64,000 nucleotides of DNA from Escherichia phage P1: sequence record AF234173.1. The stretch is one strand, 5' to 3'. The notes below the pieces were generated by a model. It was not told the DNA's origin. It searched no databases and worked only from the letters and a program-made list of their open reading frames with translations. Of this stretch, positions 2,341 through 55,329 are shown piece by piece; position 1 is the first letter of the stretch; every line of letters starts with the position of its first letter. A program made the translations under genes and the position numbers.

Positions 2341-3301
2341 TGAAAATTTAAATCTTGAGCGAACAGTAGAATTAGCCGCTGGGTCATTGCAGAAAAATCA
2401 GAACGGCGCGGATATTCCTGGAAAAGATACCTTCACAAAAAATATTGGTGCATGTCGCGCTTTTCACAGTTCTATTAGTACAGGTGCAGGGAACTGGACA
2501 ACGGCACAATTGATTGAATGGCTGGATTCTCAAGGGGCATTCAATCACCCATACTGGATGTGCAAATGTTCATGGTCGTACGGCAATAATAAAATTATAA
2601 CCGATACTGGCTGTGGAACTATTCATCTTGCAGGTTGCGTTATTGAGGTTATGGGTAATAAAGGTGCCATGACCATCCGTGTAACAACACCAAGCACTTC
2701 CAGCGGTGGCGGAATCACTAACGCTCAATTCACTTATATTAATCATGGTGATGCTTACGCTCCTGGCTGGCGACGAGACTACAACACGAAAAACCTGCAA
2801 CCTGCATTTGCTTTAGGGCAGACAGGAAACAGGGTTGCAAATGATAAAGCTGTTGGCTGGAACTGGAATAGCGGTGTTTATGATGCAGACCTAAAAGGCG
2901 CATCAACATTAATTCTTCATTTCAATATGAACGCGGGTAGCTGCCCGGCTGTACAATTACGCGTGAATTATAAGAACGGCGGTATTTATTATCGTTCAGC
3001 GCGTGATGGTTATGGATTTGAGGCTGACTGGTCAGAGTTTTACACCACAACCCGCAAACCCTCTGCGGGGGATGTTGGTGCATATACGCAGGCAGAATGT
3101 AACTCAAGGTTTATTACAGGTATTCGCCTGGGCGGTCTGTCATCTGTCCAGACATGGAATGGCCCCGGCTGGTCTGACAGGTCAGGTTATGTCGTTACGG
3201 GTTCAGTTAACGGGAACCGTGATGAATTAATTGATACAACACAGGCAAGGCCAATTCAGTATTGCATTAATGGGACGTGGTATAACGCGGGGAGTATTTA
3301 A
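1787..3301 (+). CDS. alternative tail-fibre C-terminal cassette (Sv'-like), silent in this orientation
   Basis: Shares the repeat-encoded segment with the expressed fibre, then diverges into a different C-terminus; no ATG of its own (track start is TTG inside the repeat). Confidence 0.75.
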   Translation: MSTANTWSARQTFNGGITGALTGNADTATKLKTARNINGVRFDGSGDININTLVSRGRVTALEANAQGTSGIQLYEAYNNGYPSPYGNVLHLKGATAAGEGELFIGWSGTSGAHAPVHIRSRRDTDSANWSEWAQVYTSKDSIPGVNAKGDQDTSGNAATATKLQTACTINGVSFDGSKNIELTAENLNLERTVELAAGSLQKNQNGADIPGKDTFTKNIGACRAFHSSISTGAGNWTTAQLIEWLDSQGAFNHPYWMCKCSWSYGNNKIITDTGCGTIHLAGCVIEVMGNKGAMTIRVTTPSTSSGGGITNAQFTYINHGDAYAPGWRRDYNTKNLQPAFALGQTGNRVANDKAVGWNWNSGVYDADLKGASTLILHFNMNAGSCPAVQLRVNYKNGGIYYRSARDGYGFEADWSEFYTTTRKPSAGDVGAYTQAECNSRFITGIRLGGLSSVQTWNGPGWSDRSGYVVTGSVNGNRDELIDTTQARPIQYCINGTWYNAGSI

Positions 3302-4396: not shown

Positions 4397-7360
4397 TTAC
4401 ACCTGTGCGACGTTATACCATATGCCATTGATGTATTTTTGTATCGGCCTGAAGCTAGCTTCATCATCGCCATCAACTTTACCAATAATCCTTAATCCGG
4501 TAAGTGCGTGTCCGGCTATTTCATAACGCCCTCCACGCGCCATCAATTGAACAACACGTGTGCCAAGTCGGACATCTCTCACATAGCGTGAGTCAAAATT
4601 GCCATAATTTCCGGGAATAATTTGCGCACCGCAAAGCCAGTTACCGTTATTGTCCATGTACGCCTGACCATCGGTGCCATTGGCTGTCCTTGAGTTATTA
4701 ATCATGTAGATGCCAAATTGCTTGTTCCCCAGTCCACCTATCATGAACTTTCGGTCGGCGTGATTCTGGCGAAGTAACGCCTGAGCGCTATCAGTGTTAA
4801 CTATATTTTTCCCAAAGATAGCGTTGTTATCGCGCATCTGAATCCACATACCATTACTGCTGTTAATAGCAAAACGGTCTGAAAGTGTCTCCCCTGAAAC
4901 ATTAAGGCCACGCCCCATCGAAACAGCGCCAGTAGCGTTATTAATCCATAATGGCCTTAATCCGTTATAAGTCCCCATGTTGTCACCGGAGTTTGTCAAC
5001 ATGAAGTATGTATTTGAACCATCATTACGAATAAAGAATCCGTAATTACCATAAGCAATACGTAGGCCGTTTGCTGATTTTGATATGACTTCGCCATTTA
5101 CAATGGCATTGACAAGAACATACAAAGCATCCCATTTAAGATTCATCAGGTCTTTTGTTGTGGTACTTTGTTTGCTTCTCCATTTGAAATATTCATTGCC
5201 GTTGTCGCCTGTTTCAAACCACATGTATGAATCAGTATCGCTGTCGGCATCATTTTTAAAACCAATCTTCGCCCAGTCAGTATTCCGAATCCAGGCAAGG
5301 ATTGAGTCGTTTTCAAAAGTAAGTCCACCGGACAAGGTATCGCCTGTCTTTTGAACCGCGTTATCAGCCTTGTTTACCGTTTCCTGTAGATTTAAATCTT
5401 CCGCCGTTAGCTCAATATTTTTAGAACCGTCAAACGAGACGCCGTTGATAGTACATGCTGTCTGCAACTTGGTCGCTGTAGCCGCATTACCAGAGGTATC
5501 CTGATCCCCTTTGGCATTGACGCCGGGAATTGAATCTTTTGACGTATAGACCTGCGCCCATTCAGACCAGTTGGCAGAATCAGTATCCCGCCGCGAACGG
5601 ATATGTACGGGCGCATGGGCACCGCTCGTGCCACTCCAGCCAATGAATAACTCACCTTCGCCAGCAGCGGTGGCACCTTTAAGGTGAAGCACATTGCCAT
5701 AGGGGGAAGGGTAGCCATTGTTGTATGCCTCATACAGCTGAATCCCGGATGTTCCCTGTGCATTCGCCTCCAGGGCCGTTACGCGACCGCGCGATACCAG
5801 AGTATTGATATTAATGTCACCAGAACCATCGAACCTGACGCCATTAATGTTTCTGGCTGTTTTCAATTTCGTTGCGGTATCGGCGTTCCCTGTCAGCGCC
5901 CCGGTGATCCCGCCGTTGAAAGTCTGGCGTGCACTCCATGTGTTAGCCGTGCTCAACAGGGGGATCTTTTCACCGCTGGTACCGAGTTCTCTTAAACCAA
6001 GGTATTGGATAACAGCAAGAATGCTTGTTTTGGCCAGAATATCGCGACCAACTGACGTTAAGTCAGTCTGAGAAACAGTGTCTGTACCGGTAAAGTACGG
6101 CAATTTATTTGCGCCTGTCGCAAGACCAGCAAGCGCGGTTAAAGTTGCATCAAGTGGCTGTTTCCCTGCCAGCGCATTTGTCATTGTTGTCGCAAAGTTC
6201 GGGTCATTGCCCAGTGCTGCTGCAAGCTCATACAGGGTATCAAGAGCTTCAGGTGATGAGCCGACCAATGCAGAGATAGCAGCCCGTACGTAAGCAGTCG
6301 TAGCGATCTGCGTATTGTTTGTGCCCTGTGCAGCCGTAGGCGCAGTAGGGACACCCGTTAATGCAGGGCTTGCCAAAGGCGCTTTGAGAGCCAAGGCATT
6401 GTTGATAGTTGTGCTGTAATTCGGGTCGTTATTGATCGCAGCCGCTATTTCTTTCAGCGTATCCAGTGTGCCAGGCGCACCGTTGATAAGTGCAGTTATA
6501 GCTGCCTTAACAAAGGCTGTATTTGCGATCTGCGTGCTGTTTGTACCTTGCGCTGCCGTCGGCGCGGTTGGCGTTCCTGTCAGACTCGGGCTTTCTATTG
6601 GCGCTTTGGTATCAGCCAGATCTTTTATAGACTTAACAGCTTTAGGGGTAGCCGCCATTGTTTCGCTGTCGCTGTTAGTTGCGCTACTGAGCTGAACTAA
6701 TCCCTTTTGCGTTGTGCTTGCATCCTGTGCCGTATACTTGCTTTTCGCCAGATCGTAGGCTTTTTTAACTGCCAGCGAACTTGCAGCAACATCACTTCTG
6801 GTACTGGTTACAGAGTCTGAAATATCAATGCCGATCGAGCGGTTGATACGCTCGGATGTATCAATCATCTCCTGGGTAATGGCAGATACACTAGCAGGGA
6901 TATTCACCGTACAAACAAGCAGCTCCCCATCTCCTAACTGATATGAATCGGTATAGGTTCTGGCAACAAATTCAGCCGCATGAATATGTGACGCGGTATT
7001 CACCTGGTAGGTATCTTCTCCAAGGAGGTATCTTCCCTTCAGCACAATTGCATATTTCTTGCCTGCACTAAGTGCAAGAGAAATATCCTTACGTTGCTGA
7101 ATAGTTACCTGGTAAAATTCACCAATATCCACCGACGCCGCGCCTGCGGTTTTATCACCATCCACTGAGGTAATTAACAGGTTCATCCCACCGCCAGGCT
7201 TAGGTAAGAAACCGGCATAAAATCCCGGGTCAACAATCCCCCTGAATTTTCGGTTTAGCGCGGCTGACAGATATGGTTCGTGGTATTGCACATCGGCCAC
7301 CAGAGCCAACGACTCGGATGATGGGTAAGTAACCGATGTAACAACTGTAACGTCATTCAT
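4397..7360 (-). CDS. tail fibre protein (constant N-terminal part plus currently joined variable C-terminus)
   Basis: Long ORF (track 4397..7447); likely true start is the ATG at 7360 preceded by AAGGAT; contains the right inverted repeat and internal tandem repeats. Confidence 0.85.
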   Translation of the reverse strand: MNDVTVVTSVTYPSSESLALVADVQYHEPYLSAALNRKFRGIVDPGFYAGFLPKPGGGMNLLITSVDGDKTAGAASVDIGEFYQVTIQQRKDISLALSAGKKYAIVLKGRYLLGEDTYQVNTASHIHAAEFVARTYTDSYQLGDGELLVCTVNIPASVSAITQEMIDTSERINRSIGIDISDSVTSTRSDVAASSLAVKKAYDLAKSKYTAQDASTTQKGLVQLSSATNSDSETMAATPKAVKSIKDLADTKAPIESPSLTGTPTAPTAAQGTNSTQIANTAFVKAAITALINGAPGTLDTLKEIAAAINNDPNYSTTINNALALKAPLASPALTGVPTAPTAAQGTNNTQIATTAYVRAAISALVGSSPEALDTLYELAAALGNDPNFATTMTNALAGKQPLDATLTALAGLATGANKLPYFTGTDTVSQTDLTSVGRDILAKTSILAVIQYLGLRELGTSGEKIPLLSTANTWSARQTFNGGITGALTGNADTATKLKTARNINGVRFDGSGDININTLVSRGRVTALEANAQGTSGIQLYEAYNNGYPSPYGNVLHLKGATAAGEGELFIGWSGTSGAHAPVHIRSRRDTDSANWSEWAQVYTSKDSIPGVNAKGDQDTSGNAATATKLQTACTINGVSFDGSKNIELTAEDLNLQETVNKADNAVQKTGDTLSGGLTFENDSILAWIRNTDWAKIGFKNDADSDTDSYMWFETGDNGNEYFKWRSKQSTTTKDLMNLKWDALYVLVNAIVNGEVISKSANGLRIAYGNYGFFIRNDGSNTYFMLTNSGDNMGTYNGLRPLWINNATGAVSMGRGLNVSGETLSDRFAINSSNGMWIQMRDNNAIFGKNIVNTDSAQALLRQNHADRKFMIGGLGNKQFGIYMINNSRTANGTDGQAYMDNNGNWLCGAQIIPGNYGNFDSRYVRDVRLGTRVVQLMARGGRYEIAGHALTGLRIIGKVDGDDEASFRPIQKYINGIWYNVAQV
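5406..6005. repeat. right arm of ~0.6 kb inverted repeat of the C-segment
   Basis: Reverse complement of 1741..2340; mirror ORFs 5684..5995 (+) and 1748..2059 (-) are identical. Confidence 0.85.
5988..6013. promoter_or_regulatory. cix-like crossover site, right
   Basis: Reverse complement reads TTATCCAATACCTTGGTTTAAGAGAA, a close match to gix/cix sites, at the outer edge of the repeat. Confidence 0.6.
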
Positions 7361-7371
7361 CAAGCATATCC

Positions 7372-7806
7372 TTATGCTGTAGTCGTGTTTATGGCCATAA
7401 CTGCGGTATATGTTTTGCCCACATACAGCGAGTCTTCCTGGACACAAATAATGGCGATTGGCTTGTTCTCGTTATCCAGAACAACCAGAGTGTTGAATGG
7501 GTAGTTTTTCCCTTCCTGCAACTGGCTTTGATCAAGGTCCATTCGGACAGTAATTATCCCGCCTGAGTAGGTTGGGACGAGGTTGATGGTGCAAAATTGA
7601 CTGGTCAGTTCTGCCAGTTCGAAAGCCTTTGGCAGTTCTCCAATCTCATAAGTGCCATCTCCTTTCTTAGTAACCAGCGAACTGGTACCGAAAACGGCCT
7701 TGCTGATTAAAAATCGAGAGCCTTTGTTAATGGACGATTCAGCGCGCCGCTGATAGTAATAGTCCAACAACTGACTCTTATAGAGGTTTGTTGAGACGTC
7801 AGACAT
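7372..7806 (-). CDS. tail/baseplate protein
   Basis: 144-aa ORF directly upstream of the fibre gene in the same operon. Confidence 0.5.
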   Translation of the reverse strand: MSDVSTNLYKSQLLDYYYQRRAESSINKGSRFLISKAVFGTSSLVTKKGDGTYEIGELPKAFELAELTSQFCTINLVPTYSGGIITVRMDLDQSQLQEGKNYPFNTLVVLDNENKPIAIICVQEDSLYVGKTYTAVMAINTTTA

Positions 7807-7884
7807 GATTTTCCCTAATCAATGTTGTGAAGCCTCATTGTAAGATAAGTAACTTGTCACCCCGCCCTGCGGACGGGGTGATTA

Positions 7885-8724
7885 TCAGGCATCACTATCC
7901 AGCAGCAAATCATCTGCGCGGGTGCGATCAAACGTAGGCGTTGCTTTCACAATAGTGCCGCCCGGCGTTGCAGTGATCGGAGCGCTAATCGACGTAACTC
8001 CAGTAAGCGAAGTTGTATCCGAAGTTTCAAACCAGCAGTACGCTTTTTCGGTATCAGAAATCTCGTTCAAAGTGATCATGTCGGCGTGTTCATTTACAAC
8101 AACCGACAAATAGAGCGTAAGCCCATCAAACACTATATGCAGTGGCAGTAGAGGCTTTACGAACTGATTAAACTTTCTGAGAATTTCTTCTGTAATTGCG
8201 GACTGATCTATCGTGCCAGTAATACCCATTGTCCTGGCCAGGTCGTTTATGGGAATACTGATCATCCCTCTGGAAGTCAGAAACATCTCGCCGAATGTGC
8301 CGCCGGTAGTCTCCAGTGTGCTTTCTGGTATTAGAACCGTGCCATAGGGATGACGCTCAAGGTCCACCGGTGCATATATCGGATCCCATAAAACAGAAAT
8401 ACCGTTAAATTCGCGGTAAATTGTCTGGTTTATAGGGCGTTCAGTCCCCTTAAAGTGAATCTCATCAAGACGCTGTTGTAACAACATCGGAACGGAAGAT
8501 GAGTTCGACGTTCTGATAGTAAAGAACTGGCCAAGTTCATTTGTCCTGGTCTCCAGATCCTCCTTGCTCATGGAAAAAATAGACTTCCGGTTGGTAATTC
8601 GCTCCAACCATGGGTCAACAAAGGTATCCATCATTGACTGAACCAAATCAGCCAATGATTTATAGAGCAATGACTTTTGCTTAGCTGATGTAAGCCGGTG
8701 ATTAAACCAGGAACGCTGCATCAC
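7885..8724 (-). CDS. baseplate protein
   Basis: 279-aa ORF, 4-bp overlap with the upstream gene. Confidence 0.45.
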   Translation of the reverse strand: MMQRSWFNHRLTSAKQKSLLYKSLADLVQSMMDTFVDPWLERITNRKSIFSMSKEDLETRTNELGQFFTIRTSNSSSVPMLLQQRLDEIHFKGTERPINQTIYREFNGISVLWDPIYAPVDLERHPYGTVLIPESTLETTGGTFGEMFLTSRGMISIPINDLARTMGITGTIDQSAITEEILRKFNQFVKPLLPLHIVFDGLTLYLSVVVNEHADMITLNEISDTEKAYCWFETSDTTSLTGVTSISAPITATPGGTIVKATPTFDRTRADDLLLDSDA

Positions 8725-52986: not shown

Positions 52987-53493
52987 TTGAGTATTTTCAA
53001 TAAACACGCACACCCGGAACGTCCGTACATCGTCATAGTAGATATTGATGGGACGATATCAGAGGCAACGGAAGACAGGCTGCATTTACTTCCACCACCT
53101 GGCAAAGGTGCATTAACAGAGCACTGGAACGAGTTTAACCTTGCCTGTGACACCGATACTCCCATCACTCCAGTTATTGATATGGTGCGCCAGTTATTTA
53201 ACGTTTACACGGTCTGGTTTGTAACCGGGCGCTGTGAGATCGCAAGGGATAAAACACGAGCCTGGCTGCGGAAGTACGTAACAAACGGGGCTGAGCCTTT
53301 GCTATCTATGCGTCCTGCCACCGATGACAGAAATGACGGCCCAGCAAAGATTGATCTCCTTAAGAAAATTGGTCTAAGTAAAATCGCGTTCGCGCTGGAA
53401 GATAAGATTGAAGTGGCGCGTGTTTTCAGGAGGCACGGCGTGCTTACGTTAATGGTCAGGGAGTATGAAAATGCGCTTCTTCATCAACAATAA
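52987..53493 (+). CDS. pap: HAD-superfamily phosphatase
   Basis: DxDGT motif (VDIDGTIS) near the N-terminus. Confidence 0.7.
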   Translation: MSIFNKHAHPERPYIVIVDIDGTISEATEDRLHLLPPPGKGALTEHWNEFNLACDTDTPITPVIDMVRQLFNVYTVWFVTGRCEIARDKTRAWLRKYVTNGAEPLLSMRPATDDRNDGPAKIDLLKKIGLSKIAFALEDKIEVARVFRRHGVLTLMVREYENALLHQQ

Positions 53494-53509
53494 TTGCTCT
53501 AATAAATCT
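53493..53509 (+). promoter_or_regulatory. C1 operator-like site
   Basis: ATTGCTCTAATAAATCT, overlapping the pap stop. Confidence 0.65.
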
Positions 53510-53591
53510 TGATTTTTAAAACAGAGAAAGTGAAAATAAAAACATGCCGCAAGGCGCGGCATGTTTCCAATCAATCACAGGAGCTGAAAAT

Positions 53592-53678
53592 ATGAACACG
53601 GCATTCAAAATCATTATGGCCGCGATCTATTTCTGGCTGTTCTCTATCACTTTTGGCGGCATCGTCGCGCATGGGTAA
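53592..53678 (+). CDS. 28-aa hydrophobic peptide
   Basis: MNTAFKIIMAAIYFWLFSITFGGIVAHG with AGGAG 8 nt upstream. Confidence 0.35.
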   Translation: MNTAFKIIMAAIYFWLFSITFGGIVAHG

Positions 53679-53687
53679 GGGGGATGC

Positions 53688-54617
53688 ATGAAAGGCGAAG
53701 TGAAAGAGCGCGGCATGATTTTCAACGATGAGATGGTCCGGGCCATCCTCGAAGGAAGGAAAACGCAGACGCGGCGGATAATGAAAAATCAGCCTGCGGA
53801 AGTTGGTCCAGAAGCACCAGTGATGGTTAGAAAAATTGGTGCAGGTTTTCAGTGGTACGGGGCTGATGGTGTAAGCAGTGTTTTCAATTGCCCATTTGGT
53901 ATCGTCGGCGATCGAATTTGGGTTCGTGAAACATGGGCGATATTAGGCAATGAGGATGGTTGCAGTGTGGACTGGAACGACAACCTTTGTCGTGGCGATG
54001 AGAAGAACGCAGCAAGGATTTATCGGGCCAGTTGCGAGCAAAAACCTGGTGATTACGGCTTATGGTCGATACCCGATGATGCCGACTGGAAACCTCACAC
54101 TGTGAATGAAAAGTTTGATGGTGGGTGGCGTCCATCAATTCACATGCCGCGATGGGCATCACGCATTCTGTTGGAAATTACCAACGTGCGCGTTGAACGG
54201 TTGAACGATATCAGCGAATGCGATGCAAGGGATGAGGGCGTTCCGCCTGCTGGAAGTTTGCTTCCTGATCACCCGGGAACATTCCTTACTCCCAAGGGGG
54301 ATTTCGCAATGGCCAAGGTTGCGTTCCAGCGCCTGTGGGAATCCATCTACGGCGAAGAAAGCTGGAGTGCTAATCCCTGGGTTACGAGGCTGGCAACTAT
54401 CCGGACATTCCGGATAGTTCGGTGCCAGCGAAAGGAAAGGGCGTCCCCGGTGAACGTATCCGAATTAAGCCGCATGTTTATCGCGAACTGGTTAACCGCC
54501 TCCACGATACAGCGGTCAAGTGTGCTGGCACCCAGCAATTACGAGAAAGAATTAGCCGTGTTTTGGGCGACGTTATTACGCCAGATCATCATAAACAAGC
54601 CGAGAAAAGTGACCTAG
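53688..54617 (+). CDS. hypothetical protein, ASCH/PUA-like N-terminus; 3' part overlaps another frame
   Basis: N-terminal MVRAILEGRKTQTRR; after about residue 240 the frame looks non-genic while ORF 54422..54757 looks coding. Confidence 0.45.
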   Translation: MKGEVKERGMIFNDEMVRAILEGRKTQTRRIMKNQPAEVGPEAPVMVRKIGAGFQWYGADGVSSVFNCPFGIVGDRIWVRETWAILGNEDGCSVDWNDNLCRGDEKNAARIYRASCEQKPGDYGLWSIPDDADWKPHTVNEKFDGGWRPSIHMPRWASRILLEITNVRVERLNDISECDARDEGVPPAGSLLPDHPGTFLTPKGDFAMAKVAFQRLWESIYGEESWSANPWVTRLATIRTFRIVRCQRKERASPVNVSELSRMFIANWLTASTIQRSSVLAPSNYEKELAVFWATLLRQIIINKPRKVT

Positions 54618-54757
54618 AAAGGTGTCACCTTGAGGCGGCATTAAACATTAAGCCGGGGCATACGCTTGGCATTATCGATGCTCTGTTGGTTCATAAGATG
54701 GCCATGGCTTTATTGCCGTTGGTGGATGCTGGCGATACAAGCGAGGGTGAAGTATGA
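54422..54757 (+). CDS. hypothetical protein (111 aa), or frameshifted continuation of the preceding gene
   Basis: ORF track; coding-like composition. Confidence 0.35.
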   Translation: MPAKGKGVPGERIRIKPHVYRELVNRLHDTAVKCAGTQQLRERISRVLGDVITPDHHKQAEKSDLERCHLEAALNIKPGHTLGIIDALLVHKMAMALLPLVDAGDTSEGEV

Positions 54758-55116
54758 GAGTTGCAGATCACATCAAACACCTTGAAAGAATTATCGAAAA
54801 CGGTGAACTCTTAAGAGATCAGATGAGACGCACGGCAGAAGTCAGAGAGGCGATAATCCGCAGTCAGGCTGGTAAATTAAAGCAATTGTCAGAGATTAAC
54901 GCGCTATACAAGAACAGACGTAACCGGGCGGCGCTGCGGCTTCAGAAAGCACGTAATGAAATTAAATTGGTGGAGGCAAAACTGAAAAAACAGATTCAGC
55001 GTTACGATCAGCAAGATGCTTTTTATGCCGCCATCAAGGCGGCTGCTAATGAAATAGGCATCTGGAAGTTGCTGGTGGAGAAAGCAAAGACGAAGTTAAA
55101 TGCCAACGAAAGCTGA
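54754..55116 (+). CDS. coiled-coil protein (120 aa)
   Basis: ORF track; charged helical composition. Confidence 0.45.
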   Translation: MRVADHIKHLERIIENGELLRDQMRRTAEVREAIIRSQAGKLKQLSEINALYKNRRNRAALRLQKARNEIKLVEAKLKKQIQRYDQQDAFYAAIKAAANEIGIWKLLVEKAKTKLNANES

Positions 55117-55191
55117 ACTACAGGTACCCACCAGCACATACAGAAAATGATTGTTTCCACATCAAGGAGATTTTAATGTTTCACTGAAACA

Positions 55192-55329
55192 TTAAGTAAG
55201 CCAGTGCATAATTCCATTTTTTACTGACCTTAAAAGCAAAATCAAAACGATGATGAGGATAATAGCCAGAATCTGGCTAATAACAGGCGCATCTAAAAAT
55301 GCACTCAGGAACTGAAAAAAAGCAGTCAT
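55192..55329 (-). CDS. 45-aa hydrophobic small protein
   Basis: Hand-translated MTAFFQFLSAFLDAPVISQILAIILIIVLILLLRSVKNGIMHWLT with AAGGA upstream. Confidence 0.3.
   Translation of the reverse strand: MTAFFQFLSAFLDAPVISQILAIILIIVLILLLRSVKNGIMHWLT

Follow-up and report, generated by a model that had tools for sequence, protein, structure and literature searches.

The overlap between pmgT and pmgU of Escherichia phage P1 is, with high confidence, the scar of a deletion of about 5–7 kb that joined fragments of two genes. Coordinates refer to the window, the whole 64-kb stretch of DNA that was analysed. By megablast, positions 53500–54800 match Escherichia phage P1 (AF234172 and NC_005856) at 84300–85600 with 100% identity, so the window is the final 64 kb of P1, and the record coordinate is the window coordinate plus 30800. 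Three plus-strand genes are annotated in this region of the P1 record, each with the label ‘putative morphogenetic function’: pmgT (53688–54617, 309 aa), pmgU (54422–54757, 111 aa, GTG start) and pmgV (54754–55116). The record also places pap, the C1 operator Op88 and two predicted promoters upstream of pmgT. The frame of pmgU is −1 relative to that of pmgT and is open from 54374, and the two ORFs overlap by 196 nt. The stop codon of pmgU overlaps the ATG of pmgV (54754), which has its own GAGG Shine-Dalgarno sequence and is an intact gene downstream of the scar, matching PHROG 4403 over its full length (1–120 of 120) with 96–100% identity in relatives. Searches of Pfam, NCBIfam and PDB sequences gave no match for PmgT, PmgU, PmgV, the intact homologues or a small ORF that precedes pmgT, and the PHROGs search matched families of unknown function only.

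The junction lies at 54382–54383, where two nucleotides (TT) are common to both parental flanks. Using blastn, 53400–54383 aligns to 6901–7884 of the Salmonella plasmid pATCC10729_02, and 54382–55200 to 13594–14411 of the same plasmid, with the two segments overlapping by 2 nt. P1 lacks the 5,711 bp of pATCC10729_02 that lie between, comprising about ten genes (DUF1382, two Ead/Ea22-like genes, DUF551 and several hypotheticals). In the four-way DNA alignment at this point, P1 reads CCCTGGGTT followed by ACGAGG, the left parent, a 241-aa gene (pATCC10729_02 7189–7914), reads CCCTGGGTT followed by TGGGTA, and the right parent reads GGGTAGCTT followed by ACGAGG. Most P1-like plasmids and phages match up to 54382/54383 and then again elsewhere in the same record, with homology resuming at 54382 in 31 of 41 loci, and in almost all P1-like relatives the ASCH-fold gene stands 5.0–7.2 kb upstream of the gene that contains the pmgU stretch. 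To the right of the junction, identity to P1 does not exceed 98% in any sampled relative, and the exact arrangement of the parent was thus not found. The first-pass annotation had considered that homologues might show two separate genes, with a simple indel accounting for the overlap; the genes are indeed separate, but about ten others fill the 5–7 kb that divide them, and the difference is a large deletion, no simple indel.

Left of the junction, the homologous portion of annotated pmgT is a 5′ fragment of an ASCH-fold gene, codons 1–232 (53688–54383, plus strand). The intact forms in P1-like relatives are 241–246 aa long, and P1 is without their last 9–14 codons, which encode the conserved terminal strand WVIEFKR; in almost all P1-like relatives the ASCH-fold product is 224–260 aa long and terminates in NPWVWVIEFKR. 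Among the best 120 homologues of PmgT residues 1–232 that cover the query, almost all are 213–261 aa in length, apart from two P1-type clusters, at 318 aa and 312 aa, and a single protein of 305 aa that carries an additional Pfam domain. Consistently, 27 aligned family members (224–261 aa) end 9–21 residues past P1 residue 232, and PHROG 874 spans only residues 1–234 of PmgT. Alignment of 28 sequences shows W231 and V232 to be invariant, and W233, V234 and F237 to be nearly so, with P1 departing after V232. Family residues 233–241 are replaced in P1 by unrelated sequence, leaving the terminal strand missing and the ASCH domain incomplete.

The rest of annotated pmgT, codons 233–309 and the stop (54384–54617, plus strand), is an out-of-frame read-through tail. 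Residues 233–309 have no homologue in the PHROG 874 profile or the 27-member family alignment. The codon-usage score of the tail (54384–54614) is −0.01 in the pmgT frame vs +0.124 in the pmgU frame, and among relatives 16 of the 29 polymorphic sites in 54384–54617 are third codon positions in the pmgU frame and hence second positions in the pmgT frame. Codon usage and the phase of polymorphism thus both indicate that the tail is not evolved coding sequence in the pmgT frame. Two observations of the first-pass annotation are borne out by these measurements, namely that the final part of the ASCH-like gene looks non-genic (this applies to its last quarter) and that the overlapping frame at 54422–54757 looks coding. 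Every element it described is present in the sequence where its coordinates place it.

The PmgT family has the ASCH β-barrel fold, and some NCBI records call its members ‘ASCH domain-containing protein’, with no Pfam family, the ASCH model included, reached at E ≤ 0.1 by either the P1 or the intact protein. Unlike ASCH proteins such as YqfB of E. coli, the family has neither a Pfam ASCH match nor a PDB sequence match, and at about 240 aa it carries a conserved, Cys-containing insertion of ~75 residues (82–156). The residues essential in YqfB, an N4-acetylcytidine amidohydrolase (Lys21, Thr24 and Arg26), have the same spacing as K25-x-x-T28-x-R30 of the PmgT family, where all three positions are invariant or nearly so and are kept in the P1 copy. 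This shared spacing suggests that the intact PmgT family may be a hydrolase. In the AlphaFold2 model of an intact homologue, residues 231–239 form a confident core strand of the ASCH barrel. With the same homologue set, the P1 product is modelled with a pLDDT of 44.7 and a pTM of 0.32, vs 62.5 and 0.60 for the intact homologue, and this poorer model weakly supports a loss of PmgT function. The model of the 309-aa P1 product does draw a strand at residues 231–240, with a pLDDT below 50, as in the tail, so we draw no conclusion on whether the tail replaces the lost strand.

Two further features of this gene were observed. The insertion at residues 82–156 (window 53931–54155) is highly conserved, with the pattern LGNEDGC..DW...ARIYRASCEQ...WSIPD...W.PSIHMPRWASR; C92, C116 and H152 are invariant, the AlphaFold pLDDT is 30–40, and the segment may be a metal-binding or partner-binding module. 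The P7-type allele, Upf86.8 (193 aa; P7 2419–3000, loci L083–L089), has the first 55 nt and a terminal WVIEFERIQ in common with pmgT and is 47% identical between them, which indicates from sequence that the pmgT-type gene is itself mosaic.

Right of the junction, 54384–54757 (plus strand) is the 3′ fragment of an EaA/Upf89.5-like gene, as judged by comparison with 41 relatives and by a RefSeq partial call. The pmgU equivalent is the C-terminal 111–113 aa of ORFs of 216–538 aa in all 41 non-P1-type relatives (the PmgU homologue search itself returned 46 candidates of heterogeneous gene-caller lengths). In these 41 relatives the parent frame is open for at least 88 codons upstream of the pmgU stretch, vs only 16 codons in P1-type copies, where the stop that closes the frame belongs to the sequence of the left parent. 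The GTG at 54422 is an internal Val codon of the parent gene, in the context PDSSVPA, and has only a weak GGA as a Shine-Dalgarno sequence. The right parent is a 224-aa protein in pATCC10729_02 and a 432-aa protein (Upf89.5) in P7, which share 95% identity across the final 163 aa. P1 ‘PmgU’ is equivalent to the C-terminal 111 residues of both, at a DNA identity of 95–97%; both are complete genes with N-terminal regions of their own, whereas P1 holds only the 3′ 374 nt. A gene of phage JL22 that matches Upf89.5 is annotated EaA, and the Upf89.5/PmgU family has no Pfam match, with its matching PHROG families listed as unknown function.

The truncation of both ORFs also bears on the direction of change. 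If the compact arrangement of P1 were ancestral, the other P1-like elements would have gained an insertion here, as might be expected at a known cargo-exchange hot spot of P1-like phage-plasmids (PMC9603915) where some relatives have a type IC hsd locus instead. An insertion, however, leaves unexplained why both ORFs of P1 are cut short when compared with families that are also found outside P1-like elements: WVWVIEFKR still closes the product of the ASCH-like gene in its 29 non-P1 contexts, and the PmgU-like module is always C-terminal in longer proteins. We consider an ancestral P1 arrangement extremely unlikely and favour the deletion.

In the deletion that we propose, illegitimate recombination would have removed a block of accessory genes of ~5–7 kb from the C1-controlled Op88 operon, with the left breakpoint 9–14 codons short of the end of the ASCH-fold gene and the right breakpoint within the EaA/Upf89.5-like gene, 124 codons ahead of its stop. 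The two ends would have been joined at the TT dinucleotide with their frames differing, so that translation of the first gene, once past codon 232 at 54382/54383, continues in a wrong frame of the 3′ part of the second. Because of this difference in frame, ribosomes on the ASCH gene would lose the conserved last β-strand and read 77 meaningless wrong-frame codons up to a chance stop at 54615–54617. The correct frame of the second gene would survive as a promoterless 3′ remnant without its own start, which annotators appear to have opened at an internal GTG, giving rise to the name pmgU. The 28-codon ORF ahead of pmgT is a separate, conserved feature of the backbone, the first ORF of the operon, probably translated as a small membrane peptide.

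The P1 junction is rare. It was found in 2 of 80 IMG/VR loci encoding a PmgT relative, in 5 of 990 PLSDB plasmids, and in 7 of 204 complete E. coli genomes matching either flank. The carriers are natural isolates from humans, pigs and a calf, together with an E. albertii from a crane. An identical junction in independent natural isolates means that it is neither a sequencing error nor a laboratory artefact of P1 stocks, and we interpret it as a rare derived allele. A change of frame in the middle of a gene is the classic signature of an indel error, and a sequencing indel was among the explanations first put forward; the change is nevertheless a multi-kilobase junction and not an indel of 1–2 nt, and it recurs unchanged in the independently sequenced human, pig, calf and crane plasmids and in two IMG/VR contigs, which leaves a sequencing or assembly error in the P1 reference next to no probability.

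A programmed frameshift had also been proposed; as a −1 ribosomal shift it would yield a PmgT–PmgU fusion protein, and the geometry would allow it, with the pmgU frame at −1 relative to pmgT, open from 54374 and overlapping by 196 nt. The predicted slippery site near 54400–54430 is nonetheless absent: 54300–54617 contains neither an X_XXY_YYZ heptamer in the pmgT frame nor any homopolymer run of five or more. The overlap is confined to the near-clonal P1 lineage, and in relatives the two coding regions are kept in different genes 5–7 kb apart, so a fusion would have no evolutionary history and would link two proteins that nowhere else occur joined. We regard programmed frameshifting as having a negligible likelihood. 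The third proposal, an eroding gene, came nearest, with the cause very probably being a large deletion that joined two genes.

The deletion reading agrees with an existing automatic annotation. Plasmid pEH09-18-41_2 (NZ_CP063505.1) is 100% identical to P1 across the region, and there RefSeq (PGAP) calls two adjacent partial pseudogenes, one ‘missing C-terminus’ (window 53688–54383) and one ‘missing N-terminus’ (window 54377–54757). The reading as two partial pseudogenes is thus already known through an automatic pipeline applied to identical DNA, and the pipeline gives no account of the DNA that was lost. Unlike PGAP, AF234172, NC_005856 and later papers still give pmgT and pmgU as two genes that overlap, under the label ‘putative morphogenetic function’.

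The fate of the two fragments after the deletion was also considered. In a CRISPR interference study (PMC10695390), which cites earlier work that agrees, pmgT, pmgU and pmgV scored as nonessential, and consistent with this, we infer that both fragments would be non-functional or nearly so. In seven or more natural P1-type copies both ORFs are open, with no further decay, so it is conceivable that the truncated ASCH protein, or the remnant, still has some function. The P1-type copies differ only at third positions in pmgT codons 69–168 and at two non-coding sites upstream of the small ORF, and because they are so similar, their open frames say little about selection.

Both genes might alternatively be functional as they stand, with a 309-aa PmgT that has acquired a new C-terminal extension and a 111-aa PmgU, started at GTG 54422, that serves as a stand-alone recombining module. 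The open ORFs of all P1-type copies examined fit such a view, as does the retention of the putative K25/T28/R30 motif in the ASCH core of P1. The PmgU-like module is found on several different N-terminal regions, as would be expected if it acts autonomously, and gene callers give PmgU versions of 100–195 aa elsewhere. Against this, the tail has no homologue and its codon usage and substitution phase are those of a wrong frame, the P1 protein is missing a near-invariant core strand, and its AlphaFold2 model is much poorer than that of the intact homologue, which is weak evidence. The only possible Shine-Dalgarno sequence for GTG 54422 is GGA, and all three pmg genes are nonessential (PMC10695390). 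Taken with these points, two functional genes are improbable, although less so than frameshifting, an error or an ancestral P1 arrangement, and a deletion scar flanked by two gene remnants is the preferred explanation.

The scar lies downstream of a small ORF that is not annotated in the P1 record. This ORF of 28 codons runs from the ATG at 53592 to the TAA at 53676–53678 (plus strand), and its product, MNTAFKIIMAAIYFWLFSITFGGIVAHG, is a single-pass hydrophobic peptide with a GRAVY of 1.30 overall and 2.08 over residues 7–26. As the first-pass annotation had noted, it has a strong ribosome-binding site, AGGAG, which lies 8 nt upstream of the ATG. Among the 483 ATG-initiated ORFs of 20–40 aa that the two strands of the window contain, no other combines a strong Shine-Dalgarno sequence with a GRAVY of at least 1.3. 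Across 59–62 P1-like loci the Shine-Dalgarno sequence is invariant and 8 of the 87 sites of the ORF are polymorphic, whereas the preceding 80 nt have about 19 such sites; the common variants are synonymous (33 occurrences) and the non-synonymous ones are seldom seen (6), with none at second positions. We consider the small ORF a probable gene for a small membrane protein.

The first-pass annotation described the peptide as a leader that precedes an ASCH-like gene, but its distribution does not support a partnership with that gene. All 51 loci with a P1 backbone carry the small ORF, and none of the 29 loci in which the ASCH-like gene belongs to another element does, so the small ORF is part of the backbone and not a leader of that gene. 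The conserved block ends at 53682, 4 nt past the stop of the small ORF, whichever of three contexts lies downstream: pmgT-type sequence, the P7 type, with only its first 55 nt in common with pmgT, or a type IC hsd locus in which hsdR is convergent. A role as leader or attenuator of the ASCH gene was rejected on account of these three contexts, the convergent hsdR among them, and of the absence of the small ORF from the 29 non-P1 contexts. The RNA of 53560–53700 folds no better than shuffled sequences (z −0.47), with no attenuator-type structure across the small ORF.

Database entries annotate the small ORF as 28 aa, as 44 aa or as ‘membrane protein, partial’. The 44-aa form, which starts at ATG 53544 in some PGAP annotations, was rejected since a 2-nt indel in a hairpin loop breaks its frame in hsd-type relatives, in which the 28-aa ORF is kept. 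A small-peptide database search for distant relatives returned near-identical sequences only. The peptide resembles the type I toxins and small membrane modulators of phages and plasmids in being a small (28 aa), hydrophobic, single-pass peptide with a strong Shine-Dalgarno sequence on a mobile element. The likeness is one of general form; unlike for a type I toxin–antitoxin pair, no antisense RNA, Rfam family or sequence relative was found for the small ORF, and the promoter scan found no minus-strand promoter-like site.

A fuller reading, to which we give slightly less than an even chance, is that the small ORF is a gene missed in the annotation of P1: as the leading cistron of the Op88 operon under C1 repression, it would produce a single-pass membrane peptide upon induction, be retained in all P1-like phage-plasmids whatever cargo follows, and be translationally coupled to the next gene. 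Coupling is proposed because the stop of the small ORF lies only 9 nt before the next ATG, that of pmgT in P1. In a bolder variant of this reading, the truncated ASCH protein of P1 would retain activity.

The control region of this operon is formed by Op88 (OpmgT; 53493–53509, plus strand), the C1 repressor operator, and the predicted promoters P2pmgT and P1pmgT, which Op88 overlaps (−10 at 53532–53537), all placed from the annotation of AF234172 and NC_005856 with the offset of 30800. The promoter scan missed the annotated PpmgT promoters, and a literature search on Op88 and the sequence of the small peptide gave nothing relevant. Between the predicted promoter and the small ORF, the terminator scan identified a GC-rich hairpin at 53537–53569 (core stem CATGCCGC/GCGGCATG), with fold energies of −20.5 kcal/mol on the plus strand and −23.4 kcal/mol on the minus strand (z about −3.9). 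On the minus strand a 15-bp stem is followed by the T-run TTTTCACTTT, the textbook shape of an intrinsic terminator, and on the plus strand only UUUCC follows the stem. In relatives the loop varies, with substitutions and a 2-nt indel. In those relatives with a convergent hsd locus, the hairpin would stop hsdR transcripts once they had passed the small ORF in antisense. The Rfam scan of 52900–55300 gave only a sub-threshold GcvB match at 53536–53619 on the minus strand (19.2 bits vs a gathering threshold of 42, E 0.23), which is most likely a chance match driven by the terminator hairpin and U-run.

The small ORF also leaves a trace outside P1-like elements. An 84-bp piece corresponding to 53599–53682, approximately the body of the ORF, occurs in many IncF conjugative plasmids (3001–3084 in loci L004, L005 and L009) as an IS1-truncated remnant, placed between the end of IS1 and the 3′ end of a type IC hsdR. 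The position of this remnant, adjoining hsdR, suggests that the IncF plasmids may have acquired their hsd locus from a P1-like element.

The block from pmgT to humD is one of eight hypervariable regions of P1-like phage-plasmids (PMC9603915), and other rearrangements of the region were seen. In some P1-like phage-plasmids (loci L006 and L008) the small ORF is followed by a type I (HsdR family) restriction locus, from 2761 onward on the minus strand. As the hsd locus stands in place of pmgT-type genes, the site can be regarded as an exchange point for defence and accessory cassettes. In the laboratory P1 derivative OP279344.1 (‘del res del mod’; locus L090, 3689–4550), homology to P1 stops at 54335 and resumes just before phd; this is a viable phage in which a different, larger deletion takes out pmgU through humD.

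A deletion scar of this kind, in a region already known to be variable and in so familiar a phage, is nothing unusual, and the main value of the finding is for annotation. P1 is a reference phage, and ‘PmgT/PmgU, putative morphogenetic function’ still appears in recent papers, where the label pmgT stands for an apparently truncated ASCH-fold protein with a nonsense tail, and pmgU for what is very probably a gene remnant. Four homologues from Klebsiella, Kluyvera and other Enterobacteriaceae carry the database name ‘morphogenetic protein’, apparently copied from the putative label of P1 pmgT. As a small-protein gene that annotation may have missed, the conserved small ORF is a modest candidate. 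The site itself lies within a cargo hot spot (PMC9603915) that holds Ead/Ea22-like, DUF551 and DUF1382 genes or a type IC restriction system, a context that is useful for the engineering of P1 and for the study of accessory genes in phage-plasmids.
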